A stretch of DNA of 18,610 bases from Promethearchaeota archaeon (lineage in GTDB: Archaea > Asgardarchaeota > Lokiarchaeia > Sigyniarchaeales > SOKP01): the NCBI GenBank assembly GCA_008080735.1, contig SHMW01000084.1, positions 1 to 18,610 of the forward strand, written 5' to 3'. A model generated the notes under the pieces. It ran no database searches, was not told the origin of the DNA, and was given only the letters and a program-made list of their open reading frames with translations. The first letter of the stretch is position 1, and the number at the start of each line of letters is the position of its first letter. The position numbers and the translations under genes were made by a program. Positions 322 to 18,468 of the stretch are shown piece after piece.

Positions 322-1179
322 TTAGAACTTTGCTCCAAATAATTTTTTGAAGATTTTTTCTATTCTTTTACGAGATAAAAGCCGATGCATAATTGGCAGC
401 ATTTTAACGCTGGGACCTATAATGTATACCGGTTTCCATTTGTTCGCTTGAATTATTTTCTTATACACTTTATCCGCAAATTTCGAAGGAGGCCACAAAT
501 TAAAATTTTCTTCAAGCTGATCACCCGGATTAGAAAAATATTTTTGATATAAAGGACGCAAATCGGGAGGGATTGACTCCCATAACGCAACTTCTTCTCC
601 TTTAGAAAATCCAGTCATTTTTGTTTTAACTCCGCCCGGTTCCAGTGCAGTCACTTGAATTCCAAACGGTTCCATTTCCATTCGCAGGTGACGAGTTAAT
701 GCTGCTAAAGCACTTTTAGACACTGGATATGTACATCCAAGAGGTATGGTGAGATAGACTGAAGTAGAGGTCACAATGATGATTCTAGCATTTCCATGTT
801 TTCGAAGTTGGGGAAGGAATGTTTGGACTATGCGTATAGGCCCCCAAAAATTCACCTCCATTAGGAAGTGGAATGCTTCTAGATTTACCGTCTCAACTGG
901 ACCTGGTGCGCCTGTCATGGCTGCGTTATTAATCAGCAAACTTAATCCCGTATCTCCTAATGCGCCTTTCACTTTCTCTGCTGCTTCAAGAATAGCATTT
1001 GGATCTGCTACATCACACTTCATCATAGTAAGACGAGATGATGCCGCTTTAAGTAAATCATCTGGTGGAGTTCTGTTATAAGTTCCGAATACACGCCATC
1101 CTATTTGATCTAACTTCAATGATAAGGCTTTTCCAATTCCCGTTGCTGCTCCGGTAATAAAAACACTATTTTCACTCAT
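322..1179 (-). CDS. Classical short-chain dehydrogenase/reductase (retinol/17-beta-hydroxysteroid dehydrogenase-like subgroup)
   Basis: TGAATGIG Rossmann motif, LINNAA, MEVNFWG, catalytic Ser region (VTSTS), YPVSK (YxxxK), LRMEMEPFGIQVTALEPG. Confidence 0.92.
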   Translation of the reverse strand: MSENSVFITGAATGIGKALSLKLDQIGWRVFGTYNRTPPDDLLKAASSRLTMMKCDVADPNAILEAAEKVKGALGDTGLSLLINNAAMTGAPGPVETVNLEAFHFLMEVNFWGPIRIVQTFLPQLRKHGNARIIIVTSTSVYLTIPLGCTYPVSKSALAALTRHLRMEMEPFGIQVTALEPGGVKTKMTGFSKGEEVALWESIPPDLRPLYQKYFSNPGDQLEENFNLWPPSKFADKVYKKIIQANKWKPVYIIGPSVKMLPIMHRLLSRKRIEKIFKKLFGAKF

Positions 1180-2851: not shown

Positions 2852-5800
2852 ATGCAGATAACTCAAACATTCACACCGTTTAAAGTCCAACGTAATTGTG
2901 TCTATGATGGACCAGGGATTCGAACAACACTCTTTTTTAAGGGGTGCGGATTAAGATGTGTCTGGTGTCAAAATCCAGAAATGAAATCGTTCCGTGATGA
3001 TGTTCCCCCAGAAAAGAATTATACTATTGAGGATCTAGTAGATCTAATTCTACGAGATAGAGAGTATTACATCCTGAGTGGAGGCGGGGTAACATTGAGC
3101 GGAGGTGAACCATTTCTCCAAGATCCAGAGTGTCTGATTAGATTATTGAAATTATTGAAAGAGGAATACATCCATATTGCAGTTGAGACATCCCTTCACG
3201 TTCCTTGGGACCATATTAATAAATTAGAACCTTATATTGATTTATATTTAGTTGATTTGAAGGTTGTCGGAGATGATCACCTTCATATAAAATATACTAA
3301 CCAAGACAGCAGATTAATCCATTCTAACTTGAAAAAATTGCTCGATAGAAATGCTAATGTGAAATTTCGGATGGTTATGGTGCCGGGATTCAATGATGGA
3401 GAGGATAACATTAAATCCACCGCCCATCTGCTTAAATCACTTAATTATGACTCTCTTGAATTATTAAAATATCATAACTTTTATGAGGATAAAGCACGCC
3501 GTCTTGGTCTCAATTACCAGTCTTTAGGTATAACCAATGAGAAAGCTACTGAATCAATTGAACGTGGGATTAAACTCTTTGAAAAACAAGGAATTAACGT
3601 AAAGTATGTTGAAAGAGATGCTACACTAAAAAAAACCTCTTTTTCACCTCGAGTTAGACAAATTCAAAAAGATATTAGAAATAGCGGAAGGGCCCTGTGT
3701 ATAGAAGCATGTAAATTAAAAACCAAATATTATAAAAAAAACGGTTTTGAGGAACCCACGCCTATTCACCGAGCGGAATGTCTCTCCTACGTTCTGAGAA
3801 ATAAGACGGTGAGAATCTATCCAAAAGAATTACTGGTTGGTAATTTTACCTCGAAAAGGTGTGCAGGACAACTGTGGGAAGAATATTATGGTCCGATTGT
3901 AGCAAGTTTTCTGTATAAGATAGATCGTCTAAAACCAGTACGATTTCAATGCTCATTCAAAGAAAAACTATATTCGTATGTTCGATTATTTCCGTTCTGG
4001 ATGAAGCATAGTCTTTTTAATATAGTATATTCGAAGATACCTGATGTTGTCTCTGCATTAGCAAATGCTTCCGAGACAGTTGCGGGATTTAATAATAATA
4101 TGGCATCGATAGCGCATTTTATCGTGAATTTCGAGCGAACTCTTGAGCTTGGAACGTCTGGGCTGATTAAAAAGCTCAAAAAGAAAAAGGCTGAAAAATC
4201 AGAGAAATATGAGGATTTTTATGATGGAGCAATAATTAGTTTAAAAGCTTTAGAAGCATTTGCCGCGAGGTATTCTAAAGAGCTTACATATCTTAGCCAA
4301 CATGAGTCTAATCGGCAGCGAAAGAAAGAATTGAAAAAAATGGCTGAAATTTGCGAGCATGTTCCTAAAAACCCCGCGCGCACATTTCATGAAGCACTTC
4401 AGAGTATGCTTTTTTTACATATAGCGCTGTGTACCGAATCATATGAAAATGCGATATCATTTGGGCGGCTTGATCAGATCCTTTCCCCATATTATAAAAG
4501 AGATAAAGAAGAGGGACGAATTACATATGAAGAGGCGAAAGAATTACTCTGTTTATTTATTCTTAAAATGGACGAGGTCATTTTGGTAAATGATGGAGAT
4601 AGCTTTCCAAGTCTTAATGGGCTTTTCGAGACGCTCTCTACAGATCAGGCAGTGACTTTTGGCGGCGTTGATAAGGACGGAAAGGATGCCACTAATGATG
4701 TGACATACATGCTGATTGATGCATGTGAATTACAACCTCTTTCAGCCGATATGGCGGCGCGTATTAACAAAAATAGTCCAGAGGAGTACCTAGAAAAAAT
4801 CTCCGAGGTCTACATTAAGGGATGTCCTATACCGCAACTATTCAGCGATGAGATCTATATTGAAACCATCATAAAGCATTATCCAGTATCAATAGAATCT
4901 GCGAGAAATTATTCAATAGTGGGATGTGTAGAACCAAATGCGTCTGATGACCATTTTGGGAATACTGATTGTGCAAATGTAAATCTTACCTTACCCTTAT
5001 TGCAAGCCTTAAAAGGACAAGAGCATGATTTATGGAATAATAAAACAAGTGATGATCTGCTCACACTAATTACAAATTTTGTTATATTTTACCTTAGAGG
5101 AAAAAACCTTGTTTCTAGATTTATATTACGAATTTGTAATAGGTTACGCGAAAGAAGGAAGATTAAATTAGGATTATACAACTATAATCCGCCTTCAAAT
5201 ATGGAGGAATTGCTTGAACGATTCCAGAAACGGTTGAATCATCTTACAAATTCCATCTTAAAAGATCATCAAAAGATTGAAAGGCATCTTCGCCAACACT
5301 TTCCCACGCCTCTTGCCTCCTCACTCTCTAAAGGTTGTATAGAAAGCGGTAGGGATGTATATGAAGGTGGAGCAACGATCAACAGCAGCGGCATTCAAGC
5401 AGTAGGAGTAACTGATGTCGCAGATTCACTATTTGCTATTAATGAGGTTGTTTTTAAGAAAAAGCTCTATTCAATCGAAGATGTTATAGTTGCGATTGAA
5501 AATAATTTTCAAGGATCTCGTAGCCAAAAGATTCGATCTGCATTACTTTCAGTTCCGAAGTTTGGAGAAGAATCTTCTACAGAAACCATAGTTTGGATGA
5601 ATGAAGTATTGAAGATGTACAACAATGCATTGGACTCAGTAGGCAATAGTCCACGAGATGGAAGATATTCAGCGGGCTATTATGCCCTGAATGTATGCAC
5701 TCGCTATGGAAAAAATACACCTGCACTTCCCTCGGGAAGACTTGAAGGAGAGCCACTTGCGAATAGCCTCACACCTCATTATGGAATGGAACAATCGGAT

Positions 5801-6127
5801 CTCTTATCTTCATTGAATTCAATTGCTGGAATTAATTTTATAGAGCATGCTGAGAATGGTTCAACTGCCACGCTAACGATTGACTCTTCTCTATTTCAAA
5901 ATTCAGAGGGAAAAAAGAATCTAGCTAGTCTTATAAACACATTCCTCTCTAAGGGGGGTATGCAACTCCAACCAAACGTCGTCAACCGTGAAATGTTACA
6001 AGATGCCTATGAACATCCCGAGAAGTATCCGAATTTAATGGTTCGTATTGCCGGCTACTGCGCATACTTCAATGAACTTTCTGATGGCATGAAACAAGTT
6101 ATTATCAATAGGGCTTGCTATAAATAA
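2852..6127 (+). CDS. Fusion of a glycyl-radical enzyme activating enzyme (radical SAM, aa ~1-255) and a PFL-family glycyl radical enzyme (aa ~265-1091)
   Basis: N-part: DGPGIRTTLFFKGC32GLRC36VWC39QNPE, GGGVTLSGGEP, AVETS, LVDLK, VPGFND, LLKYH. C-part: PRV..IQ, IHRAE..YVL..IYPKELLVGN, PARTFHEALQ, SFGRLDQIL.PYY, GGVDKDGKDATN, Cys loop GC692VEP, PKFG, TPALPSGR..GEPLANS, Gly loop VRIAG1068Y. Single uninterrupted frame. Confidence 0.95.
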   Translation: MQITQTFTPFKVQRNCVYDGPGIRTTLFFKGCGLRCVWCQNPEMKSFRDDVPPEKNYTIEDLVDLILRDREYYILSGGGVTLSGGEPFLQDPECLIRLLKLLKEEYIHIAVETSLHVPWDHINKLEPYIDLYLVDLKVVGDDHLHIKYTNQDSRLIHSNLKKLLDRNANVKFRMVMVPGFNDGEDNIKSTAHLLKSLNYDSLELLKYHNFYEDKARRLGLNYQSLGITNEKATESIERGIKLFEKQGINVKYVERDATLKKTSFSPRVRQIQKDIRNSGRALCIEACKLKTKYYKKNGFEEPTPIHRAECLSYVLRNKTVRIYPKELLVGNFTSKRCAGQLWEEYYGPIVASFLYKIDRLKPVRFQCSFKEKLYSYVRLFPFWMKHSLFNIVYSKIPDVVSALANASETVAGFNNNMASIAHFIVNFERTLELGTSGLIKKLKKKKAEKSEKYEDFYDGAIISLKALEAFAARYSKELTYLSQHESNRQRKKELKKMAEICEHVPKNPARTFHEALQSMLFLHIALCTESYENAISFGRLDQILSPYYKRDKEEGRITYEEAKELLCLFILKMDEVILVNDGDSFPSLNGLFETLSTDQAVTFGGVDKDGKDATNDVTYMLIDACELQPLSADMAARINKNSPEEYLEKISEVYIKGCPIPQLFSDEIYIETIIKHYPVSIESARNYSIVGCVEPNASDDHFGNTDCANVNLTLPLLQALKGQEHDLWNNKTSDDLLTLITNFVIFYLRGKNLVSRFILRICNRLRERRKIKLGLYNYNPPSNMEELLERFQKRLNHLTNSILKDHQKIERHLRQHFPTPLASSLSKGCIESGRDVYEGGATINSSGIQAVGVTDVADSLFAINEVVFKKKLYSIEDVIVAIENNFQGSRSQKIRSALLSVPKFGEESSTETIVWMNEVLKMYNNALDSVGNSPRDGRYSAGYYALNVCTRYGKNTPALPSGRLEGEPLANSLTPHYGMEQSDLLSSLNSIAGINFIEHAENGSTATLTIDSSLFQNSEGKKNLASLINTFLSKGGMQLQPNVVNREMLQDAYEHPEKYPNLMVRIAGYCAYFNELSDGMKQVIINRACYK

Positions 6128-6175: not shown

Positions 6176-6949
6176 CTAATTTTGTTTCATTTGACAAAAA
6201 TTAACTAATTCTCTAGTATCTAGAAACTTTATTTGAATCATTTTCGATTTCCATTCAATTTCTTGATTATAGACCGGATTTCCACGGAGATCAATTGTAT
6301 CCAGATTCTTAAGATTTGCAAGACCCTTTAGTTGATGAATTTCATTAAAAGCGAGATTCAGTCTCTTCAATTTTATTAGATGATCCAGATTTTTTATTTC
6401 CTGTATTTTGTTTCTCTTTAATACCAAAAGAATTAATTCTTTCAGGGAGTCAAGACCTTGAAGCTCCATTATAAAATTTTTTTCAATATTCAGAAATTCC
6501 AGATTATACAGGTGTTCCAAACCCTCTATTTTATGAAAGCGATTGCTTCCGAGATATAATCTCTTTAAATTTTTTAGAGTATCCAATCCACTAATCTTTT
6601 GAATTCGATTATCAAACACATTTAACTCAACCAATTTAGAAAGGGAATTAAATCCTTTGAGTTCTGATATTTTATTATTGTACAGATAAAGATATTGCAG
6701 ATTAGATAATTGGGCCAACCCACTTATCTCCGCGATTTGGTTTAATCGTAAATTAAGAAGCTCCAATTGAGTTAAATCTTCAAGGCCCTTGATCTCTGTA
6801 ATCTCATTATATGATAAATCTAATTCTCTAATATTCCCGAGATTCTCAAATCCTCTGATAAGTGTTATATCCTCAATTCCTAAATTACTCAGATTTAAAA
6901 CTCCATTTCTAAGGAAGTATTTAGAACCTTTATATCTGACATAATCCAT
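6176..6949 (-). CDS. Leucine-rich repeat protein (SDS22-like 22-aa repeats)
   Basis: Eight full LxxLxLxxNxIxxIxGLxxLxx repeats plus partial terminal repeats ending in LDTIDLRGNPV. No signal peptide or TM segment visible. Confidence 0.93.
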   Translation of the reverse strand: MDYVRYKGSKYFLRNGVLNLSNLGIEDITLIRGFENLGNIRELDLSYNEITEIKGLEDLTQLELLNLRLNQIAEISGLAQLSNLQYLYLYNNKISELKGFNSLSKLVELNVFDNRIQKISGLDTLKNLKRLYLGSNRFHKIEGLEHLYNLEFLNIEKNFIMELQGLDSLKELILLVLKRNKIQEIKNLDHLIKLKRLNLAFNEIHQLKGLANLKNLDTIDLRGNPVYNQEIEWKSKMIQIKFLDTRELVNFCQMKQN

Positions 6950-7135: not shown

Positions 7136-8125
7136 ATGAGTAGTCTGAGCATTATCGAGGATTTAATGAGAGAATTTGCGGAAAATACGGGGCTAAATTC
7201 AGAGAGGGATCCAAAAAGATATCTCTGGACAGATGCGTTTGCGGTCTGCAACTTCATCCAATTATTCAAGCAGACAAAAAATGAGAAATATAAAGACTTA
7301 GCAATTGATCTAGTAGATCAAGTTCATTCGATCCTTGGAAAACATCGTGATGATGATCCTCGGGAAGGCTGGCTCTCCAACAACCCTAAACATCCTACTA
7401 AAAATGGTTTGCGAATAGGGAAAGACCTACCTGAAAGAAAACGTGATCAGCCAATCGACCAGCAACTCGAATGGGAGAGAGATGGACAATATTTTCACTA
7501 TTTGACCAAATGGATGGTTGCGTTGATTAGCATAGGGAATTTTCTTGAGGAAGAAACCTATAAGATTTGGGCGTCAGATTTAGTACAAGCCTCGATGAGT
7601 TTCGTCCATAATGAGAGGATGTTTTGGAAGATGAGCATCGATCTCAGCAGACCATTAGTCAGTTCGATGGGACAACACGACCCCCTCGATGGATACACGG
7701 TATTCAGATTAGTTGATATGAATACAGAGGAGGATTTAAGCGAGGAAGTGAACGTTATGTTTAAGATGGCAAAAGGATTGCGTTTAGAGACAGAAGATCC
7801 ATTGGGAATGGGAAGCATGTTGATCGACGCATACAGATTATATAAAATGAATGAGAAAAAGGAATTCATCGATACTATTATTGAAGCTGTCAAATATGGG
7901 ATTCAATATTTCAATGCGAATATTCATAGCTTAGCGTTTCGAGAATTAGGATTAGCAATAGGAATAGACGCAGCGAAACGAATGAATAGGTTAAAAAAAT
8001 ATTGGAATATTTCTGAGAAGTTAAATACCTACTGGGTCAATCATCGAAGATGGGAAGCTCACAAAGACATAAACCAAGTTATGTTGGCGACTAGCTTAGA
8101 CCCAAACCAATATTTAGAAGTTTAA
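7136..8125 (+). CDS. Conserved hypothetical protein, probably all-alpha (alpha/alpha toroid-like) and enzyme-like
   Basis: 329-aa ORF with motif-like blocks RYLWTDAFAV, DGQYFHYLTKWM, WKMSIDLSRPLV.SMGQHDPLDG, LAFRELGLAIG and H.DIN.VMLATSL, which I recall from an uncharacterised microbial family. Confidence 0.75.
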   Translation: MSSLSIIEDLMREFAENTGLNSERDPKRYLWTDAFAVCNFIQLFKQTKNEKYKDLAIDLVDQVHSILGKHRDDDPREGWLSNNPKHPTKNGLRIGKDLPERKRDQPIDQQLEWERDGQYFHYLTKWMVALISIGNFLEEETYKIWASDLVQASMSFVHNERMFWKMSIDLSRPLVSSMGQHDPLDGYTVFRLVDMNTEEDLSEEVNVMFKMAKGLRLETEDPLGMGSMLIDAYRLYKMNEKKEFIDTIIEAVKYGIQYFNANIHSLAFRELGLAIGIDAAKRMNRLKKYWNISEKLNTYWVNHRRWEAHKDINQVMLATSLDPNQYLEV

Positions 8126-8824: not shown

Positions 8825-9301
8825 ATGGCAGCAACTAAACTCGTAATCGGTAAAAAAGCACCAGAATTTTGTTTACCCGATATGAACGGAAAAGATGTAT
8901 GTTTAAAAGATTACAAAGGAAAAAATGTAATTTTATACTTCTATCCCAAAGATAATTCACCAAGTTGTACCACCGAAGCAATTGGCTTTACAAATATTTT
9001 GCCTGAATTGCTGGAGCTCAACGCCGAGGTGATTGGAATAAGTCCCGATAACCCAGAATCCCATAAAAAATTCATTGAAAAGAAAAATCTTAAGATCACC
9101 TTACTCAGTGATGAAGATAACGAGGTCTTGGAAAAATATGGCGCTTGGGGAATGAAGAAATTTAGAGGTAAGTCGTATATAGGAGTAATCCGAAGCACCT
9201 ATTTGATTAATAAAGATGGCATAATAGAATATCACTGGCCTAAAGTAAGTGTAAAAGGACACTCTGAAGACGTGAAAGAAAAACTAAGTGAAATTGAGTA
9301 A
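8825..9301 (+). CDS. bcp: BCP/PrxQ-family peroxiredoxin
   Basis: GKKAPEF, LYFYPKDNSPSCTTEA (peroxidatic Cys), GISPD..ESHKKF, LLSD, YGAW, RSTYLI (catalytic Arg), V.GH. Confidence 0.93.
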   Translation: MAATKLVIGKKAPEFCLPDMNGKDVCLKDYKGKNVILYFYPKDNSPSCTTEAIGFTNILPELLELNAEVIGISPDNPESHKKFIEKKNLKITLLSDEDNEVLEKYGAWGMKKFRGKSYIGVIRSTYLINKDGIIEYHWPKVSVKGHSEDVKEKLSEIE

Positions 9302-9466: not shown

Positions 9467-10975
9467 GTGGATAAAATAATGATTAAAAGTATAAATCCCG
9501 CTACTCTTGAAGAAATTGGAGCAGTGGAAGAAACTCCGATAGAAAAGCTCGATGAAATATTTGAAAATTCTCGAAAAGCTCAAAAGATGTGGGCGAAAGT
9601 TCCCCTAGCTGAACGGGCAAGGAGAGTGGTGGATGTTAATAGAGTTATTTCAACTCAATTTGATGATATTTCGCACTTAATTTCACAGGAGGTCGGAAAA
9701 CCGCCAGATGAAGCATTTGTCAGTGAAGTATACGGCGTAGCAGACTCAACGTTTAATTATTACTCCAATGTGGTGGATATTTTAGGAAGAGAAGAAGAAG
9801 TTCCACTAGGATTTTATGAATCGTTAGATAAGAGAAGTCTGATTATTAGAAAACCAATTGGCGTGATTTGTGTAATAGGTCCTTATAATTATCCCTTTAC
9901 TATTCCATTTCAACAGATCGTTCAGAGTTTGATGGCAGGAAACAGTGTGGTATTCAAACCATCCTCAGAAACCGTCCTTACTGGAAAAAAAATCCAAGAA
10001 ATTTTCGATGAAATAGATTTACCAGAAAATTTGGTACAAACTGTTTTTGGAAGCGGTTCGAAATTAGGGAATCCATTGATTGATAATGCAGAGAAGGTAA
10101 TTTTTACTGGAAGTACCGCTACGGGGAAAAGAATAATGCAGAGAGGAGCAAATACACTCACTGATGTGGATCTTGAGTTGGGAGGTAAATCTGCGATGAT
10201 CGTATTTCCAGATGCGAATCTTGAAAGAGCTGTATTAGCGGCACGATGGGGTTGCTTTACCAATGCGGGACAGGTTTGTGCTTCGGTCAAACGATTATAT
10301 CTTCATAAAGATATATATGACGGATTTCTTGATGATTTAGTCAGAAAAACCAAGGAATTAAAACAAGATATTCCCACCAAACCGAATGTGGATGTTGGAG
10401 CGATGATCAACGAAGAACAATTGAATTGGGTGGAAAAAAGCGTCAAGGCGGGAATTGAAGAGGGAGCTGAAATATTAGTAGGAGGTCGTAGAAATCCAAA
10501 TTTTGAAGGTTATTTTTACGAACCAACAATAATGACTGCAGAGAGCAATGATATGAAAGTCGTTCAAGAGGAGATCTTTGGTCCCGTTTTAGTGGTGCTT
10601 AAATTTGAAGACGAGGAGCAAGTTATAGAGATGGTAAATGATAATCAATATGGGCTAACTTCAAGTGTCTGGACAGAAGATATTGAATTTGGTAAGAAAA
10701 TAGCAGAAGAGATAAATACCGGGTCCATAATGGTAAATGAGGTGGTCTACACGTTCGCGCTCGCACCAACTCCATGGGGAGGGACAAAAAACTCGGGAAT
10801 CGGTAGAACTCATGGGAAATTGGGTTTTTATGAAGTATCCCGTCCTTTACATATAAATATTGATGAGTACAAGGAGCCTGATCTCTGGTGGATGCCGTAT
10901 GATGAGAGTTACAAAGAAATAATCGAGAATTTCAAAAATATCGCATCAAGCTTGGTAGTTAAGGACAATTATTAA
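9467..10975 (+). CDS. NAD(P)-dependent aldehyde dehydrogenase (GTG start; ATG at 9479 is also plausible)
   Basis: SINPAT, PYNYPF, FKPS, FTGSTATG, LELGGKS (catalytic Glu), NAGQVCAS (catalytic Cys), EEIFGP, YGLTSSV, PWGG.K.SGIGR. Confidence 0.96.
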   Translation: MDKIMIKSINPATLEEIGAVEETPIEKLDEIFENSRKAQKMWAKVPLAERARRVVDVNRVISTQFDDISHLISQEVGKPPDEAFVSEVYGVADSTFNYYSNVVDILGREEEVPLGFYESLDKRSLIIRKPIGVICVIGPYNYPFTIPFQQIVQSLMAGNSVVFKPSSETVLTGKKIQEIFDEIDLPENLVQTVFGSGSKLGNPLIDNAEKVIFTGSTATGKRIMQRGANTLTDVDLELGGKSAMIVFPDANLERAVLAARWGCFTNAGQVCASVKRLYLHKDIYDGFLDDLVRKTKELKQDIPTKPNVDVGAMINEEQLNWVEKSVKAGIEEGAEILVGGRRNPNFEGYFYEPTIMTAESNDMKVVQEEIFGPVLVVLKFEDEEQVIEMVNDNQYGLTSSVWTEDIEFGKKIAEEINTGSIMVNEVVYTFALAPTPWGGTKNSGIGRTHGKLGFYEVSRPLHINIDEYKEPDLWWMPYDESYKEIIENFKNIASSLVVKDNY

Positions 10976-11004: not shown

Positions 11005-12192
11005 TCATATTCTCATATTAATAAATTTGCCCGTCTTCATTAATGAGCATGGTTCAAAATAGCTCTTATTGTTTTCGCCTGCAAATATTGTTAATTTATC
11101 TGACCAATTTTTATAATTGTGTTTTCCTGGGGTAAAAGGTGCTGGAGTTCCAATCCCAATCTTCATCACCTTTTCGATGATAGAATAGTTCGGCACGATA
11201 TTCTCTTCCAACATTTTACAGGATTCATTCAGCTGGATAGCTAATAGGAGTTCAGGATCTAAGAGTCCAGCTTTTTTGGTTTTATCAATTAAAGGCCTTC
11301 CATCTTCATCATAGGTGTAAAATCCCCTCCCGGTCTTTTTTCCATAATATCCATTCTTCACTAATTCAGTTAGGACATTTCCAGGAGCAAATTCCGGGGA
11401 TACTCGTTTTTCAAAGCTTTTTAGTGCCTTATAATTCGTATCTAATCCCAAATAATCACATAATTCATACGGACCCACTTTCATGAAGGGGTAGGCATCA
11501 GCATCCAATTGTTCTATTGGGATATCCTTCTCCGCTGCTTTATCCGCTAATATATTAAGATATAGATTTCCAGGGATTAGTAGACGGTTTGAGATAAAAC
11601 CTGGAGTATCTTTTTGGATAGGTGCTACAAACATTGTGCCATTTTTGGCGGGGATAGTTTTACAGAATTCTATAGTTCTGTGAAATACCTCGTCTCTCGT
11701 TTTTTCTCCCTTCATCACTTCAATACAACTTTGCATAAAAGGAGGGACGAAAAAATGCATACCGATGGTTTTTTCTGGTTTATTAGAGGCTTCTCCCAAT
11801 TCCGTTATCGTGAAAGTGGAGGTGTTTGACGCAATAATGGTATTACTGCCACTTTGATTCCCAATTTTACTGAGGAGATTTTTTTTTAATTCAATATCCT
11901 CCGGAATGACCTCTATTATTAGATCTGAATTAAACACTTTTCTATCTAATTGGGTCGAACTATTTAATTTGTTAACAATCCTTTCTGCGTCTCCATCGCG
12001 TTGGAAAAAATTTTTTGAACCTAATTTATGGATATATTTTTTTAAGGTGGATCGAGCCTTTTTTAGTGTGGTTTCGGAAATATCAATCAAATTAACTTTT
12101 TCCGCATTTGATAGCAAAAATATTTGTGCAATTCCGACGCCCATCGTACCAGCACCAATTACGGAAATCGTTTTAACATCTGTGTGCGTCAT
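11005..12192 (-). CDS. 3-hydroxyacyl-CoA dehydrogenase family protein with an extra C-terminal helical domain
   Basis: VIGAGTMG, IIEVIPE...K, ASNTST, IGMHFF (catalytic His), PGFISNR, GPYEL.DY.GLD, G.KTG.GFY, then a second LNES..MLEE..V-type C-terminal repeat. Confidence 0.93.
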   Translation of the reverse strand: MTHTDVKTISVIGAGTMGVGIAQIFLLSNAEKVNLIDISETTLKKARSTLKKYIHKLGSKNFFQRDGDAERIVNKLNSSTQLDRKVFNSDLIIEVIPEDIELKKNLLSKIGNQSGSNTIIASNTSTFTITELGEASNKPEKTIGMHFFVPPFMQSCIEVMKGEKTRDEVFHRTIEFCKTIPAKNGTMFVAPIQKDTPGFISNRLLIPGNLYLNILADKAAEKDIPIEQLDADAYPFMKVGPYELCDYLGLDTNYKALKSFEKRVSPEFAPGNVLTELVKNGYYGKKTGRGFYTYDEDGRPLIDKTKKAGLLDPELLLAIQLNESCKMLEENIVPNYSIIEKVMKIGIGTPAPFTPGKHNYKNWSDKLTIFAGENNKSYFEPCSLMKTGKFINMRI

Positions 12193-13131: not shown

Positions 13132-13995
13132 ATGAAAATCGATTTCCATTGTCACATCTTCCGTGGATTGAACTCGAAAAGTCAAATAGAGGACCAATTT
13201 AACAAAAAGTTTTCTGGCTATGGATTTTATGAACGTATAAAACAAGGAATAGCCGAGATTAAAACTATTGAAACAGACGATATTATAGAAAAAGTATTAT
13301 ATCATATCAAGCAAGCGAGGTTAGATAAAGTGGTGCTCCTTCCTCTTAGTATAAACGAAAATGAAAAAGTACTTAATTGGAAAAAAAGAGCGCCCGAGAT
13401 ATTCATCCCATTCTTCAATCCTCCGGAGCGACCGATGAAAGGAATCAATACAGAAAAAATACTGAAAAGCGCCATTGAGGAAGATGGGATCAGAGGATTG
13501 AAACTCATGAACCCCTTCCGTGAAAAACACCTAAACGATCCCGTACTATTGGAAGCATTTGAGCTTGCCGAGATTCATGAGTTAATTGTTTTAATGCATA
13601 CGGGATACCCACCTCCGGGAACAAGAAAAAACGTGTTAACATATGCAAATCCGCTGAAAATTGAAGATATCATCCAAAGATTTCCTGAGCTAAAAATCAT
13701 AATCGCGCATATGGGTTATCCATGGGTCGATGTTGCCCTCTCATTGGCAGTCCAATATCCTAATATTTATGTTGATATTAGTAATCTTACTTATATGATG
13801 CCCAAACGTTTAGCGAAGTTCCTTATTCGAGCAAAAGAACTAATCGGAACAGATAAAATTCTTTTTGGTTCAGATGGCTTTGTCCCGGAAATGATCGAGA
13901 TGAGCGTAAACTATTTTGAAGATATTGGTTTTCTTTCAAAAAATGAAATTGATAAGATTCTAGGATTAAATGCCAAGCGATTATTACATCTATAA
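13132..13995 (+). CDS. Amidohydrolase superfamily (amidohydrolase_2-type) metal-dependent hydrolase
   Basis: IDFHCH (HxH), GIRGLKL, LMHTG, FPELKIIIAHMG.P, NIYVDIS, KILFGSD, KILG.NA.RL. Confidence 0.92.
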   Translation: MKIDFHCHIFRGLNSKSQIEDQFNKKFSGYGFYERIKQGIAEIKTIETDDIIEKVLYHIKQARLDKVVLLPLSINENEKVLNWKKRAPEIFIPFFNPPERPMKGINTEKILKSAIEEDGIRGLKLMNPFREKHLNDPVLLEAFELAEIHELIVLMHTGYPPPGTRKNVLTYANPLKIEDIIQRFPELKIIIAHMGYPWVDVALSLAVQYPNIYVDISNLTYMMPKRLAKFLIRAKELIGTDKILFGSDGFVPEMIEMSVNYFEDIGFLSKNEIDKILGLNAKRLLHL

Positions 13996-14133: not shown

Positions 14134-14937
14134 TTGAAATTTGTTGATTTATCCATTCCAATAATTAATCCAGATGAGGCGATCTTCGATCCTCCGTTAA
14201 CCCAACCGCAAATAGAATATAGTGCTCATGAAGAGGGTGCGAATCAGATGGGTTTTGTATTTCCTCGATTAAAACCAGAGAATCATCTTCCCGATGGAAA
14301 GGGTTGGGCAACTGAGACAATTACCTTAGGAACTCATAGCGGAACCCATATGGATGCTCCGTGGCATTTTGCTCCTATACAAGATAAGGAAACTGGAGAG
14401 CGCAAAGCGATGACAATCGATGAAATTCCACTTGAATGGTGTATCGCCCCCTTGGTAGTGTTGGATTGTACGGATTATAAAGAGGGATATGTAATGACCC
14501 CTGAAGATGTTGCTAGTAAATTGGAGGCAATTAATCATAAGCTTCAAGAAGGTGATGTGTTATGTGTCCATACAAATGCTCCAAAGCATTACGGAACAAA
14601 AGAGTATATTAATCATGGAGTTGGTGTCGGAAGAGAGGCAACTCTTCATATTCTACGACAAGGAGTCCATATTGTAGGTATAGATGCATGGAGTTGGGAT
14701 GCCCCATTTTCCTTGACTGCGAAGAAATGGAAAAAATCGGTGAGAGCAAAAGAGCCCGATACGTCTTTAATTTGGGAAGGACATTTTGCGGGGAGGGATC
14801 TTGGTTATTTTCAGATGGAAAAAATGTACAACTTAGATAAAGTCCCTCCGACTGGGGCCACTATCTATTGCTTTCCAATCAGAATCGCGCGAGCAAGCGC
14901 AGCGTGGGTTCGTGCTGTGGCAACCATTCCCGAATAG
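14134..14937 (+). CDS. Cyclase family (kynurenine formamidase/isatin hydrolase-like) metallohydrolase
   Basis: VDLS, HSGTHMDAPWH (HxGTHxDxPxH), VGIDAWSWD, H...QMEKMYNL, P..I..ASA...RAVA. TTG start with SD-like AGGTG about 7-11 nt upstream. Confidence 0.92.
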   Translation: MKFVDLSIPIINPDEAIFDPPLTQPQIEYSAHEEGANQMGFVFPRLKPENHLPDGKGWATETITLGTHSGTHMDAPWHFAPIQDKETGERKAMTIDEIPLEWCIAPLVVLDCTDYKEGYVMTPEDVASKLEAINHKLQEGDVLCVHTNAPKHYGTKEYINHGVGVGREATLHILRQGVHIVGIDAWSWDAPFSLTAKKWKKSVRAKEPDTSLIWEGHFAGRDLGYFQMEKMYNLDKVPPTGATIYCFPIRIARASAAWVRAVATIPE

Positions 14938-15046: not shown

Positions 15047-17260
15047 TTAATATTCGGTCTCAAAAGTTTCATCTACGAGCTGTTCTGCATCAGCGAACGG
15101 TGCTAGTGCCCCACTCCAGTCTTCCAGTGTTTCAGAATACTTATCTTGAAAAATATTTACAAAATGTTGCAACTGAGTTCGAACTTCTGATGATTGATTT
15201 CCCTTGATAAAGAGCGCTCCAAAGAGCTTTTTGCCATACTCAATTAATATTGTAATATCTCCATGATCAATAGTTTTAAGTGCTTCTGTACTCTTGGTGG
15301 TTTCCTTTATGAAAGACGTGATTGCCGAAAACATTCCAGAAATTAGTCCCGGATCTTGTGCGGCCTCTTCGGAAAATTCGTGATCATATACTCCTCTTCC
15401 ATCCTCATAGATAATATATAATGCTTGTTTTTTCACTCGTTCAAACCGATAGCTGAATTCAGGTTTCCATACCTCAATTCTCCCTTGGTTGTAGAGATAT
15501 TTCAAAACAAAATAAAATCTCTTAATCTCTTCCTCCTGTTGAGGTGTTAATTCTTTCAAGGTTTTGTCTCTTTCTAGGTCAGCCAATAAGGTCTGTACTT
15601 CTTCTCTAGCTTCTTCGGGAGTTGGTTGGGCAGAAAGTAGAGTCTTGGAGATAAAATAGTCGGAATTTTTATCGCGATAATCACTGTATGGTATGTAAGT
15701 GTCCACATTTGTAAAAATGACTTTTTTTACGTACTGTTCATCTATGGGAACATTTGCGATTTTAAACTTCTTGAGTAGATAATAGGTAAAACACCCCCAT
15801 AAGATGATGCTAAATACATATCTCGAATATATATAGGGAATTGCCAGAATGCCCAAGACTCCGCTTAGGTTTGCCTCAAATGCCGCAGTACGTAACGTAA
15901 AAAAGTCGAAGCCAAACAAAGAAGTAAAGCTCACTCTACCAGTTAACCAATATTCATCCGGAGCAAAATTGATTAATGGATTAAATCCAATTATCCGAAA
16001 TATAATTGAGAGTAAAATAACCGCGATCATAAATCCCAAGATACTTGTTAAAATGTCCCTTGAGAAACGAAATGTATAGATTAGGAATATAGTCGTTATA
16101 ATGATTGGAACTATTGCCAGTATGATAGTATCGATGAAAATCAAGAGGTCAAAAAGATAAGCGTCAAGAAGAGTAGGATCGGCATTAAAGAGCCCCGTAT
16201 TAAGAACAGTTTGTGGATCACTGAATATTTCAATAATGATAAAATTAAAAATTAGGGTGATTAGGAAGTAAACCACCGTTGCTATAACTCCAAATACTAA
16301 CCCATAATAAATTCCCGTCTTTTTTGATTCTCGAATTTTTCTTTTTTTGTTTTTCCACCAATCGACTATTTTAATTAGAATAAAGATTGAAATCTGCTCG
16401 AAAATATCTAAAAATAGTATAAAAATACCCGTTGCCATCAGAAAATATGCAAAAAAATACACAATAATATCAATTGACCCTAAATATTCAAGCAAAAACA
16501 AAAATATTGAGATAATTGAAATGGGAGTTCCGACCATATATAAACTTCGAAAAGTCTGTTCTCTCACTCGCTCACCGAAATAACGTCCTTTTATTGCCAC
16601 TTTACTTGAGTATAAAAGCTCGATACTAAAGATGAAGATAGCAAGATATACGAATAAGATTTCCAAAAACCAACCAAGGGCGGTCTCAGAAGTACTTAAG
16701 GAAAAATTCTGAAGGTTTGATACTTTTAAAATTGCTTGGAGGATATAGAGAGATACAGGAAGAAGTACAACCATCAACTTGAATATCTCTTTTTCACGCG
16801 TCCAATCTTTATTTAGCAACTCTTCTTTTATATTCTGGAGAGGGCTTTTTTCAAACTCATAGGTGGTCTGATTTAATATTTCCTCTGTAGTTCCCTCTTC
16901 TTTGCGTATTCGATTCCAAATCATTATAAACGATATTAACGGTGCAACGATGAAGATAAAGGGTAAAATCACCAATGGATAGGAAATGAAAATGGAAATC
17001 AACGAGAAAAAATGTATCGCCATGTAACCTAAGCTCAGCCCTCCTTGATCAGTGGAAACATCTAATTCATTGACGGGATTGTTAATTTGAAAAATAACTG
17101 GGAGAATCCAATAGATAAAATAAAAAATCGAGATTCCAACTACTATTCTCAAATATAACTTTCCAATCGCTCGATTCCAAAGAAATAGGAGGGGTAGAAA
17201 CATTATGATTACTGGTAGAATATTCAGCAAAATCGTAAGTATAATTTCTATCGCACTCAT
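15047..17260 (-). CDS. Polytopic membrane protein (~11-13 TM) with a C-terminal cytoplasmic longin/roadblock-like domain
   Basis: N-terminal ~495 aa consist of long hydrophobic segments. The C-terminal ~125 aa LYIIYEDGRGVY...DPGLISGMFSAITSFIKE...LKTIDHGDITILIEYG...F...F...Y...L.DWSG....F match the longin-like domain commonly appended to Asgard membrane proteins. Confidence 0.85.
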   Translation of the reverse strand: MSAIEIILTILLNILPVIIMFLPLLFLWNRAIGKLYLRIVVGISIFYFIYWILPVIFQINNPVNELDVSTDQGGLSLGYMAIHFFSLISIFISYPLVILPFIFIVAPLISFIMIWNRIRKEEGTTEEILNQTTYEFEKSPLQNIKEELLNKDWTREKEIFKLMVVLLPVSLYILQAILKVSNLQNFSLSTSETALGWFLEILFVYLAIFIFSIELLYSSKVAIKGRYFGERVREQTFRSLYMVGTPISIISIFLFLLEYLGSIDIIVYFFAYFLMATGIFILFLDIFEQISIFILIKIVDWWKNKKRKIRESKKTGIYYGLVFGVIATVVYFLITLIFNFIIIEIFSDPQTVLNTGLFNADPTLLDAYLFDLLIFIDTIILAIVPIIITTIFLIYTFRFSRDILTSILGFMIAVILLSIIFRIIGFNPLINFAPDEYWLTGRVSFTSLFGFDFFTLRTAAFEANLSGVLGILAIPYIYSRYVFSIILWGCFTYYLLKKFKIANVPIDEQYVKKVIFTNVDTYIPYSDYRDKNSDYFISKTLLSAQPTPEEAREEVQTLLADLERDKTLKELTPQQEEEIKRFYFVLKYLYNQGRIEVWKPEFSYRFERVKKQALYIIYEDGRGVYDHEFSEEAAQDPGLISGMFSAITSFIKETTKSTEALKTIDHGDITILIEYGKKLFGALFIKGNQSSEVRTQLQHFVNIFQDKYSETLEDWSGALAPFADAEQLVDETFETEY

Positions 17261-17364
17261 TTTTCTATAATATTAGTTTTTAGTTAATTTTTTGATATGT
17301 AAAATTAAATATATGTAATCCTCAATAATCAAATTAAAAATTTCGAATATTTTAATTCTTGTAT
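17261..17364. promoter_or_regulatory. Divergent promoter region between the membrane-longin gene and the HDAC gene
   Basis: About 100-bp very AT-rich spacer between head-to-head starts, with TATA-like TTAAATATA near 17306-17314. Confidence 0.4.
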
Positions 17365-18468
17365 ATGAATATAAAAAATCAACGACTTGGAATTTTATTT
17401 GATTATGATTTTTCCAAGCAACATAATCCTCCCTACCCTCATCCCGCCTTTATTTCGTATGAGAATCCTTTAAGACTTAAGGTAATTTACAACTATTTCG
17501 AGAAGATTCGTATATTTGAAGATGAGCGTATTATTAAATTAGCTCCGAGAATAATAGGTAAAAAACTTCTTACAATAGCTCATTCGCAATATTATATTGA
17601 TACTGTGAGACGGCTTTCTCAATTCGGAAGCGGCCTATTATCTGAGGAGGTCTTCGTGGTAAAAGACACTTATTTACTGGCTAAAAAAGCAATCGGGGGT
17701 GTGATTGAGTGTATTGATGCGGTCTTGAATAATCGCGTTGATCACGCTTTTGCACTCGTACGCCCTCCAGGGCATCATGCAATGCGTGAGAAAGGTGCAG
17801 GATTATGTATATTTAATAATATCGCAGCATCACTATTGAATTTAAAGAAAAATGGTTATGATAAAAAAATTGCCATAATCGACATAGATGATCATTTCGG
17901 AGATGGAATTGCGCAATATTTTTACGAAGATCCCGATGTACTCTATTTTTCTGTCCATGAATTCGATTTTTTAGAAGGAGATATTGGATTTATAACCGAA
18001 ACGGGTGCTAAGCGGGGCAAGGGTACTACGATTAATTTTCCTATTCCTATGAACACTACGGACGATAATTTTTTAGAATTTATGGATATTCTCAACCCAG
18101 TGTTGAGAGAATTCCGTCCCGAACTGATTATTATAGCAGTAGGAGTCGATATGTATTTTGCAGACCAAATTGGAAATTGTTTGCTTACTAGTAAATCCTA
18201 TTATGATTTCACTTGTAAAATGAAAGAAATAGCAGAAGATTTATGCGATGGTCGGCTGGTCTTTGTATTGGAGGGAGGATATAACCTGATTGGGCTCCCA
18301 ATATGTGTTTATTCCATCATCAGAGCACTCCTTAAAGAGGAATACATATCACACGATTTCGAACACCTAGATTTTTCGAAATTTCGGAGTAATATTGAAT
18401 TACTCAAAATCAAGGAAGCTTTAACAGGTATTTTGAGCGAGTATTGGACATGTTTCGAAAATGAATAA
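17359..18468 (+). CDS. Zn-dependent histone deacetylase superfamily protein (HDAC/AcuC/AphA-like); ATG at 17365 is the likely start
   Basis: E.P.RL, RPPGHHA, GLCIFNNIA, IDIDDHFGDG (Zn ligands D and H), SVH, G...G.G.TINFP, GVD....D.IG, VLEGGY (catalytic Tyr). Confidence 0.94.
   Translation: MYMNIKNQRLGILFDYDFSKQHNPPYPHPAFISYENPLRLKVIYNYFEKIRIFEDERIIKLAPRIIGKKLLTIAHSQYYIDTVRRLSQFGSGLLSEEVFVVKDTYLLAKKAIGGVIECIDAVLNNRVDHAFALVRPPGHHAMREKGAGLCIFNNIAASLLNLKKNGYDKKIAIIDIDDHFGDGIAQYFYEDPDVLYFSVHEFDFLEGDIGFITETGAKRGKGTTINFPIPMNTTDDNFLEFMDILNPVLREFRPELIIIAVGVDMYFADQIGNCLLTSKSYYDFTCKMKEIAEDLCDGRLVFVLEGGYNLIGLPICVYSIIRALLKEEYISHDFEHLDFSKFRSNIELLKIKEALTGILSEYWTCFENE

Follow-up and report, generated by a model that had tools for sequence, protein, structure and literature searches.

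Glycyl radical enzymes (GREs) are normally switched on by a radical S-adenosylmethionine (SAM) activase that is made as a separate protein and acts catalytically. Whether the two can also exist as a single polypeptide, and if so how such a protein arose and works, is the question raised by contig SHMW01000084.1 of a Promethearchaeota archaeon (assembly GCA_008080735.1; Asgardarchaeota; Lokiarchaeia; Sigyniarchaeales; SOKP01), which was analyzed over its full 18,610 nucleotides (nt) and is referred to here as the window. One open reading frame (ORF) of the window, encoding protein P0001 (1091 codons plus stop), places an N-terminal activase in frame with a GRE (Table 1). With a probability of about 0.72, this gene appears to represent a genuine one-chain GRE system that originated from a bacterial operon, lost one insert and gained another, spread to Asgard archaea, and likely catalyzes a 1,2-elimination.

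Four Pfam domains were recovered along P0001, specifically Fer4_12 (amino acids [aa] 19-109), Radical_SAM (28-184), PFL-like (266-723, with a second stretch), and Gly_radical (970-1074), at E-values ranging from 1e-13 to 4e-135; a 1091-aa ORF with such domain scores is far beyond chance. A reading made from the sequence alone (the sequence-only reading) had described a full activase and a full GRE in one frame, which is borne out both by the co-occurrence of Radical_SAM, PFL-like, and Gly_radical in a single ORF and by a motif script that recovered the three cluster cysteines, GGEP, GCVEP, and RIAGY at the positions listed in Table 1. Three activase motifs occur in the N-terminal half, namely an N-terminal DGPGxR, CxxxCxxC, and GGE, and this half scored 219 bits against TIGR02494 (PFLE_PFLC type), above the cut-off of 174, and less (154 bits) against the PFLA model. 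The C-terminal half contains the ten-stranded PFL-like barrel (PF02901, 452 bits; fold-comparison score TMt 0.89-0.91 to solved GREs) and the Gly_radical domain (PF01228, 84 bits), and it follows the published GRE C-terminal fingerprint RVxG[FWY]x6-8[FL]x4Qx2[IV]x2R (PMC13450708), with RIAGY followed in register by L1076, I1084, and R1087. The sole deviation is K1081 (6092-6094) in place of Q; this K is invariant across the family and is followed by Q1082.

The evidence that the fusion is genuine comes mainly from its homologues. When 5.8 billion representatives of 90%-identity clusters were searched, 120 matches were listed, one of which was the window's own protein; at least 119 further clusters encode the same three domains in a single ORF of 1047-1146 aa, at 61-69% identity over 96-100% of the query, so homologues are by no means all encoded as two genes. 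Across the homologue alignment (n = 120), the Cys loop, the Gly loop, and GG(E/D)P are invariant, and the cluster cysteines are present in 112/120 (C32 and C36) or 116/120 (C39) sequences, the remainder being alignment gaps attributed to starts that were probably miscalled at the equivalent of M44. The span from aa 240 to 280 is exactly 41 residues long in 118/120 homologues, and this near-constant length points to a constrained structural piece rather than a loose linker. Inspection of the junction sequence revealed no in-frame ATG, GTG, TTG, or stop between aa 246 and 276, in agreement with the earlier statement that no alternative Met or stop lies there.

It could be argued that the single ORF is an artefact of assembly or sequencing, such as an indel in the run of eight A residues (A8) positioned right at the junction, and that the organism has two genes. 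This is barely conceivable in view of the at least 119 independent clusters and the 30 genome loci at which the single ORF is retained, the window junction itself, which has the exact family length without a gap, and the 18 homologous loci examined at the junction, none of which contains a homopolymer and all of which keep the frame; furthermore, every partial genomic match to the family stops at a contig edge. An A8 indel had been named as an observation that would undo the fusion, but this does not apply, since the homopolymer-free homologues keep the same frame and length. Taken together, these observations exclude an artefact for the family and make one very unlikely for the copy in the window. 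Programmed slippage at A8 as a conserved mechanism was also considered and rejected, as the run occurs only in the window's gene, where it is probably a chance feature of an AT-rich genome.

Two side observations concern how the gene is read. Were one A of A8 gained or lost, whether in the gene itself or on transcription, the frame would close ∼8-20 codons later and a free activase of ∼270-280 aa would result. Separately, database copy P0002 (1048 aa) begins at M44, a start miscall by which 2852-2983, and with it CxxxCxxC and the Fer4_12 match, is lost; such miscalls are common (P0002 and eight further clusters, 1047-1058 aa), and the resulting entries mimic an incomplete activase.

The fused activase lacks the eight-Cys ferredoxin-like insert typical of most non-PFL activases, as judged from the alignment. 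Residues 17-250 align with residues 14-243 of the E. coli pyruvate formate-lyase activating enzyme (PFL-AE; 3c8f) without an insert, and the alignment to TIGR02494 skips the ferredoxin segment of that profile (positions 43-101), in line with the lack of an insert that the sequence-only reading had noted. According to a June 2026 review, only PFL-AE and the ribonucleotide reductase activating enzyme (RNR-AE) are without the ferredoxin domain, the function of which is unknown (PMC13450708). The window activase resembles E. coli PFL-AE (PflA, 3c8f/3cb8) in size and in comprising only the radical-SAM core; however, it differs in descending from ferredoxin-bearing activases, as described below, and in being covalently joined to its substrate protein. 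The missing insert, which most non-PFL activases have (PMC13450708), might be taken to mean that the domain is decayed or a purely structural remnant, but this is highly improbable given that bacterial and archaeal members alike share CxxxCxxC, DGPG(I/L)R, GG(E/D)P, and many further positions without variation, that TIGR02494 is passed, and that PFL-AE and RNR-AE are functional without such an insert (PMC13450708).

To place the fusion among unfused systems, trees of both halves were compared. Among unfused relatives, P0129 and P0132 are nearest. Each of their genes directly follows an activase gene, at a distance of 13 nt or with an overlap of 4 nt, and both operon activases carry the ferredoxin insert. 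The family formed a single well-supported clade (100) in the enzyme-domain tree (IQ-TREE, LG+C20 mixture model, short search, outgroup root; FastTree agrees), and its activases formed a single clade (94) among ferredoxin-bearing activases in a tree that took E. coli PflA as its root and left out the insert columns. P0124, P0126, and the P0132 operon activase made up the sister set (91). The concordance of the two trees indicates that both halves share one history, and the nested position of the family indicates that the ferredoxin insert was lost secondarily. Besides the fusion and this loss, the family is set apart by a third derived trait, an enzyme-barrel insert of ∼50 residues, ∼40 more than other GREs hold at this site. 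This insert was found in 34/34 family members and 0/32 other GREs compared, other fused forms included, and is modelled as helices at 732-748 and 753-772. The family probably originated in bacteria from an activase-then-enzyme operon; after fusion, the activase lost its ferredoxin insert and the barrel gained the two-helix insert, and the gene then probably spread across phyla as a stand-alone, one-gene cassette before entering one Asgard order.

Fusion of an activase and enzyme gene pair probably occurred more than once. P0124 (metagenomes), P0126 (Anaeramoeba flamelloides, KAJ3428281.1), and P0261 share with the window protein an N-terminal activase, a C-terminal PFL-like enzyme, and a length of about 1050-1136 aa; however, all three retain the 8-Cys insert and have no barrel insert, and their identity to the window protein is 37-38% (P0124 and P0126) or about 31% (P0261). 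P0124 was assembled independently in three samples, and its pairing with the unfused P0132 in the enzyme tree (98, well supported) argues for an independent fusion. In the literature covered, the only precedent found for an activase-GRE fusion, known at sequence level, is the class III ribonucleotide reductase NrdDG of eukaryotes (Lundin et al., 2010; PMC3019208), which likewise combines a GRE and a radical-SAM activase in one frame and has a link to horizontal transfer, but belongs to another branch of the superfamily, is eukaryotic, and has the enzyme first and the activase last.

Three further observations were made on fused and nearly fused genes. The 1136-aa insert-keeping fusion of the anaerobic protist A. 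flamelloides (P0126/P0272; KAJ3428281.1, KAJ6231265.1) is labelled ‘formate acetyltransferase 3-related’. An ESM Atlas cluster of the fused type (1133 aa) has a mostly eukaryotic label, with diatoms commonest, although the taxon is known for only 4 members. Finally, many activase-then-enzyme operons with both genes in one frame and a single stop between them, the loss of which would fuse the genes, were seen in Klebsiella, Aeromonas, Aminicenantes, Oscillospiraceae, Fusobacteriaceae, and Bathyarchaeota (L066-L072, L077, L080, L090, L091).

The family is taxonomically broad, yet compact in sequence. In a 50%-identity library it collapses to one full-length representative plus fragments, as expected of a tight clade, and the nearest unfused enzymes there are ≤39% identical to it. 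Among GTDB species genomes, single-ORF copies (49-65% identity) were recovered from Smithella/Syntrophaceae, other Deltaproteobacteria, Myxococcota, Bacteriovoracaceae, Spirochaetes, Clostridia, Oscillospiraceae, and Sigynarchaeum, and all matches at ≤32% identity were ordinary two-gene operons in either gene order. Judged from these sequences, well over a hundred uncultured anaerobes share the fusion in conserved form. Within the Asgard archaea, 12 of 400 genomes yielded the gene; they belong to 10 of 85 genera and to three families, all in a single order. It was recovered from 0/6 other genomes of the window's own genus. The 14 Asgard rows of the enzyme tree formed one clade (99, well supported) nested within three bacterial nodes that are themselves well supported; its sister is a Bacillota/Spirochaete group. 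The Asgard copies probably come from bacteria, and a single bacterium-to-Asgard transfer into one order would be the simplest reading of this topology. For Asgard biology the result is modest, namely one more bacterial gene gained by one order and no ancestral trait.

If the fused enzyme works as its parts suggest, it would, we infer, activate itself. The N-terminal domain would bind a [4Fe-4S] cluster through C32, C36, and C39 and SAM through GGEP, as known from the activase family, and an external low-potential donor would reduce the cluster, a donor being invoked because the activase domain is without auxiliary clusters. The resulting 5′-deoxyadenosyl radical would then take a hydrogen from G1068 of its own chain or of the partner chain in the dimer, and the glycyl radical so formed would generate a thiyl radical at C692 that attacks the substrate. 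Structural modelling bears on the geometry of this scheme. About 14 residues tie the activase to the first pre-barrel helix. Complex prediction with the activase (12-250) and the enzyme (331-1091) as separate partners gave an ipSAE of 0.51 (best control 0.00, no interface listed), a mark that 58 of 80 solved complexes and 2 of 110 mismatches also attain, where passes at ≤0.60 count as weak; contact agreement among runs was ≥93% and partner predicted local distance difference test (pLDDT) values were ≥77. The prediction lends weak support to an activase domain that docks on the enzyme body. The predicted template-modelling score was 0.83 for the full-length model and 0.85 for the enzyme alone; by rough arithmetic, this gives the activase a placement confidence similar to that of the remaining model. 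The Cys and Gly loops of the full-length model have low pLDDT, which was considered as a mark of an alternative, activase-bound state and rejected: the enzyme half alone is also low there (Cys loop <50, Gly block mean 56), and loops that are low without the activase reflect the weakness of a shallow alignment and carry no signal.

A stronger form of this scheme is a self-sufficient, one-gene enzyme in which the activase is permanently docked, possibly via the two-helix insert, which may also take the place of the lost ferredoxin domain by recruiting an electron donor, and in which the radical is installed and re-installed within one particle. This is possible but doubtful. If true, the protein would be the first stable natural activase-enzyme complex fit for structure determination, and permanent docking would explain how easily the cassette crossed phylum and domain boundaries.

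The likely chemistry was assessed from the enzyme half. By sequence, its best solved relatives are Archaeoglobus fulgidus PFL2 (2f3o, 366 bits, the top match) and then 1r8w; by fold, the best matches are propanediol dehydratase, glycerol dehydratase, and PFL2. It is not a PFL proper, as its Cys loop reads G-C and not C-C, and TIGR01255 scored 125-127 bits against a cut-off of 994. C692, E694, H422, and D706, all family-invariant, correspond to C433, E435, H164, and D447 of glycerol dehydratase, and together they present the pattern of the GRE 1,2-eliminases, a group comprising glycerol and propanediol dehydratases, CutC, HypD, and sulfopropanediol dehydratases, in which a Cys loop with Cys-x-Glu is combined with the His and Asp by which glycerol dehydratase holds its substrate hydroxyls. 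An eliminase-type pocket for a hydroxylated substrate is therefore somewhat better than an even prospect, and the most likely chemistry would be a 1,2-elimination like that of dehydratases or lyases, with a small hydroxylated compound as substrate, favored because E694, H422, and D706 are kept.

The closest known enzymes share much of this architecture but not the fusion. A. fulgidus PFL2/PflD (2f3o) is similar in fold (TMt 0.91), in its single-Cys GCVE loop, in having Ala-Ile where glycerol dehydratase has Ser-Ile, and in that its substrate too is unproven; it differs in being a two-gene system whose activase, PflC, is described with Cys-rich ferredoxin boxes (PMC8163825), in lacking the aa 728-778 insert, and in having only ∼29% identity to the window enzyme by Foldseek. 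The B12-independent glycerol dehydratase (1r8w) and the 1,2-propanediol dehydratase (5i2g, 9rco) have the same fold (TMt 0.89), and the catalytic residues of the former have equivalents in the window enzyme as given above; however, both are served by separate downstream activases of a class that generally has the ferredoxin domain, and the window enzyme falls far below their equivalog cut-offs.

Several observations weigh against the reading of the gene as a self-contained, bacterially derived 1,2-eliminase. The helices that precede the barrel, to which the activase is tethered, form the dimer interface of GREs, and the glycyl radical domain lies at the dimer periphery (PMC13450708), so it is not obvious that the activase can reach the glycine in cis. 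The direction of transfer carries the caveat that it hinges on an outgroup root with long branches. No conserved neighbor gene recurred in flanking-ORF clustering across 22 loci, in two bacterial neighborhoods, or in Pfam scans of the window's neighboring genes, and gene context thus offers no clue to the substrate. In the pocket, H281 and S282 of glycerol dehydratase are replaced by N533 and A534 (family-invariant), and the substrate thus cannot be read from the pocket. No curated equivalog cut-off was reached, the eliminase equivalogs scoring 225-382 bits against cut-offs of 1000-1150, and TIGR01774 (PFL2/glycerol dehydratase subfamily) scored 513-515 bits against a cut-off of 678; as the latter alignment covers the whole model, the protein is best described as an outlying relative of that subfamily. 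Lastly, three separate activases and two enzymes without an activase occur in the same genome, by which activation in trans is possible.

This last point relates to an alternative in which the fusion is a co-expression device, either because the activase acts chiefly in trans on other enzymes or because the chain is cleaved after translation. The genome contigs encode six PFL-like enzymes, including the fusion, and three stand-alone activases; the enzymes on C4, C7, and C23 each have a full ferredoxin-bearing activase directly downstream, no activase lies near those on C25 and C24, and activases normally work catalytically on separate proteins. Nevertheless, this alternative is unlikely in light of the concordant activase and enzyme trees with the same sister group, the fixed-length and fairly conserved junction, the gene standing alone in bacteria, and the lack of a conserved internal start or an obvious cleavage motif.

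A second alternative, which is possible though it is not the favored chemistry, is a GRE reaction other than elimination, whether a PflD/YbiW-like reaction on a sugar phosphate, C-C bond formation on hydrocarbons, which has been proposed for PflD-like proteins of Asgard archaea, or novel chemistry. Consistent with this, the missed cut-offs extend to the nearest relatives, which have no assigned family either (P0129 alone reaches a cut-off, that of the PFL2-3 subfamily); the function of the best sequence relative, A. fulgidus PFL2 (2f3o), is debated; and the family departs from other GREs in its barrel insert and from the published fingerprint in K1081, a position given there as Q (PMC13450708). 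Opposed to it are the single Cys followed by Glu in GCVEP with the H164 and D447 equivalents, which is the 1,2-eliminase pattern, and the absence of X-succinate synthase-type small subunits, none of which is encoded in the window or beside the homologues. The structures of benzylsuccinate synthase and (1-methylalkyl)succinate synthase were also the weakest matches among non-PFL GREs.

Proteins of this kind are already public under generic names (‘pyruvate formate lyase family protein’, ‘radical SAM protein’), as the sequence-only reading had suspected, but the fusion itself appears unstudied: no paper on a PFL-type activase-enzyme fusion was found, the June 2026 review included (PMC13450708), in a search that excluded subscription journals, and the earlier statement that no biochemically characterized example is known agrees with the literature, in which no biochemical study of the fusion was found. 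The present analysis adds that the Asgard clade is nested, that the ferredoxin insert was lost secondarily, that the barrel has a family-specific insert, that the junction is of fixed length, and that independent ferredoxin-bearing fusions exist, one of them eukaryotic. How an activase gains access to the buried glycine of its GRE has been an open question since the peptide-bound PFL-AE structure of 2008; the structure of an activase-enzyme complex has been stated to be unknown (PMC4034769), and none was found in a copy of the PDB from April 2026. A short, fixed-length natural fusion is a ready object for cryo-electron microscopy and for cis/trans mixing, and would offer a one-chain model of the activation step, and comparison of this activase, which is without the ferredoxin domain, with its ferredoxin-bearing fused relatives could reveal the role of that domain. 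A self-contained, one-gene radical enzyme is also attractive for engineering, and the family should be of real interest to radical-enzyme specialists.

Table 1. Coordinates of the fused gene, its domains and motifs, neighboring genes in the window, and further GREs of the assembly (positions in nt).
Feature	Position	Strand	Basis
Whole fused gene, P0001	2852..6127	+	Full-length homologues of the same architecture, 61-69% identity
Activase (radical-SAM GRE-activating enzyme) domain, aa 1-252	2852..3607	+	TIGR02494; PFL-AE alignment; model strand 249-251 ends the domain
CxxxCxxC (C32, C36, C39), putative ligands of the SAM-binding [4Fe-4S] cluster	2945..2968	+	Motif script; homologue alignment
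Site aa 44-56, where related activases hold the ∼60-residue 8-Cys ferredoxin-like insert; empty here	2981..3019	+	Alignment
GGEP, aa 84-87, SAM-binding GGE motif	3101..3112	+	G84, G85, and P87 invariant; position 86 is E/D
Junction, aa 252-265, including the A8 run (3628-3635)	3605..3646	+	Fixed length; pLDDT ∼59 at aa 251-260
GRE domain, aa 264-1091	3641..6124	+	PF02901, PF01228; solved relatives 2f3o, 1r8w; fold match
H422, counterpart of glycerol dehydratase H164	4115..4117	+	Mapped by hand from HMMER alignment; family-invariant
Cys loop GCVEP, aa 691-695 (C692, thiyl radical site; E694, putative general base)	4922..4936	+	120/120 homologues
D706, counterpart of glycerol dehydratase D447	4967..4969	+	Alignment; family-invariant
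Family-specific insert, aa ∼728-778	5033..5185	+	Two modelled helices, the second basic
Gly loop RIAGY, aa 1065-1069 (G1068, glycyl radical site)	6044..6058	+	R, A, G, and Y invariant; second position I/V
Short-chain dehydrogenase	322-1179		
Leucine-rich-repeat protein	6176-6949		
Peroxiredoxin	8825-9301		
Aldehyde dehydrogenase	9467-10975		
3-Hydroxyacyl-CoA dehydrogenase	11005-12192		
Amidohydrolase	13132-13995		
Cyclase	14134-14937		
Histone-deacetylase-type protein	17359-18468		
Five further PFL-like GREs of the assembly	C25:22490-24442; C24:19020-21005; C4:19430-21565; C7:64860-66809; C23:12329-13915		Loci L001-L005, L008-L010

Around the fused gene, the leucine-rich-repeat gene is convergent with it and lies 48 nt from its stop, and the aldehyde dehydrogenase gene is 3.3 kb away behind opposite-strand genes and does not recur at other loci. 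Among relatives of the neighbors, only the 3-hydroxyacyl-CoA dehydrogenase was found beside the fusion elsewhere, in one other locus. Two ORFs, at 7136-8125 (+; 329 aa) and 15047-17260 (-; 737 aa), matched no Pfam family at E ≤ 0.01. A promoter and terminator scan, which does not cover archaeal promoters, returned counts at chance level.

Outside the fusion family, many GREs of 990-1050 aa form a group with an N-terminal extension of ∼170-220 residues that matches no Pfam family with confidence (L002:3400-4047 and L004:3400-4056, both on the minus strand); P0142, P0159, P0171, and P0180 and the enzymes at loci L078, L084, L087, L089, and L094 belong to it as well. The extension of the C24 enzyme has a sub-threshold match to SCP2 (E 0.04; 14.7 bits against a cut-off of 21.3).

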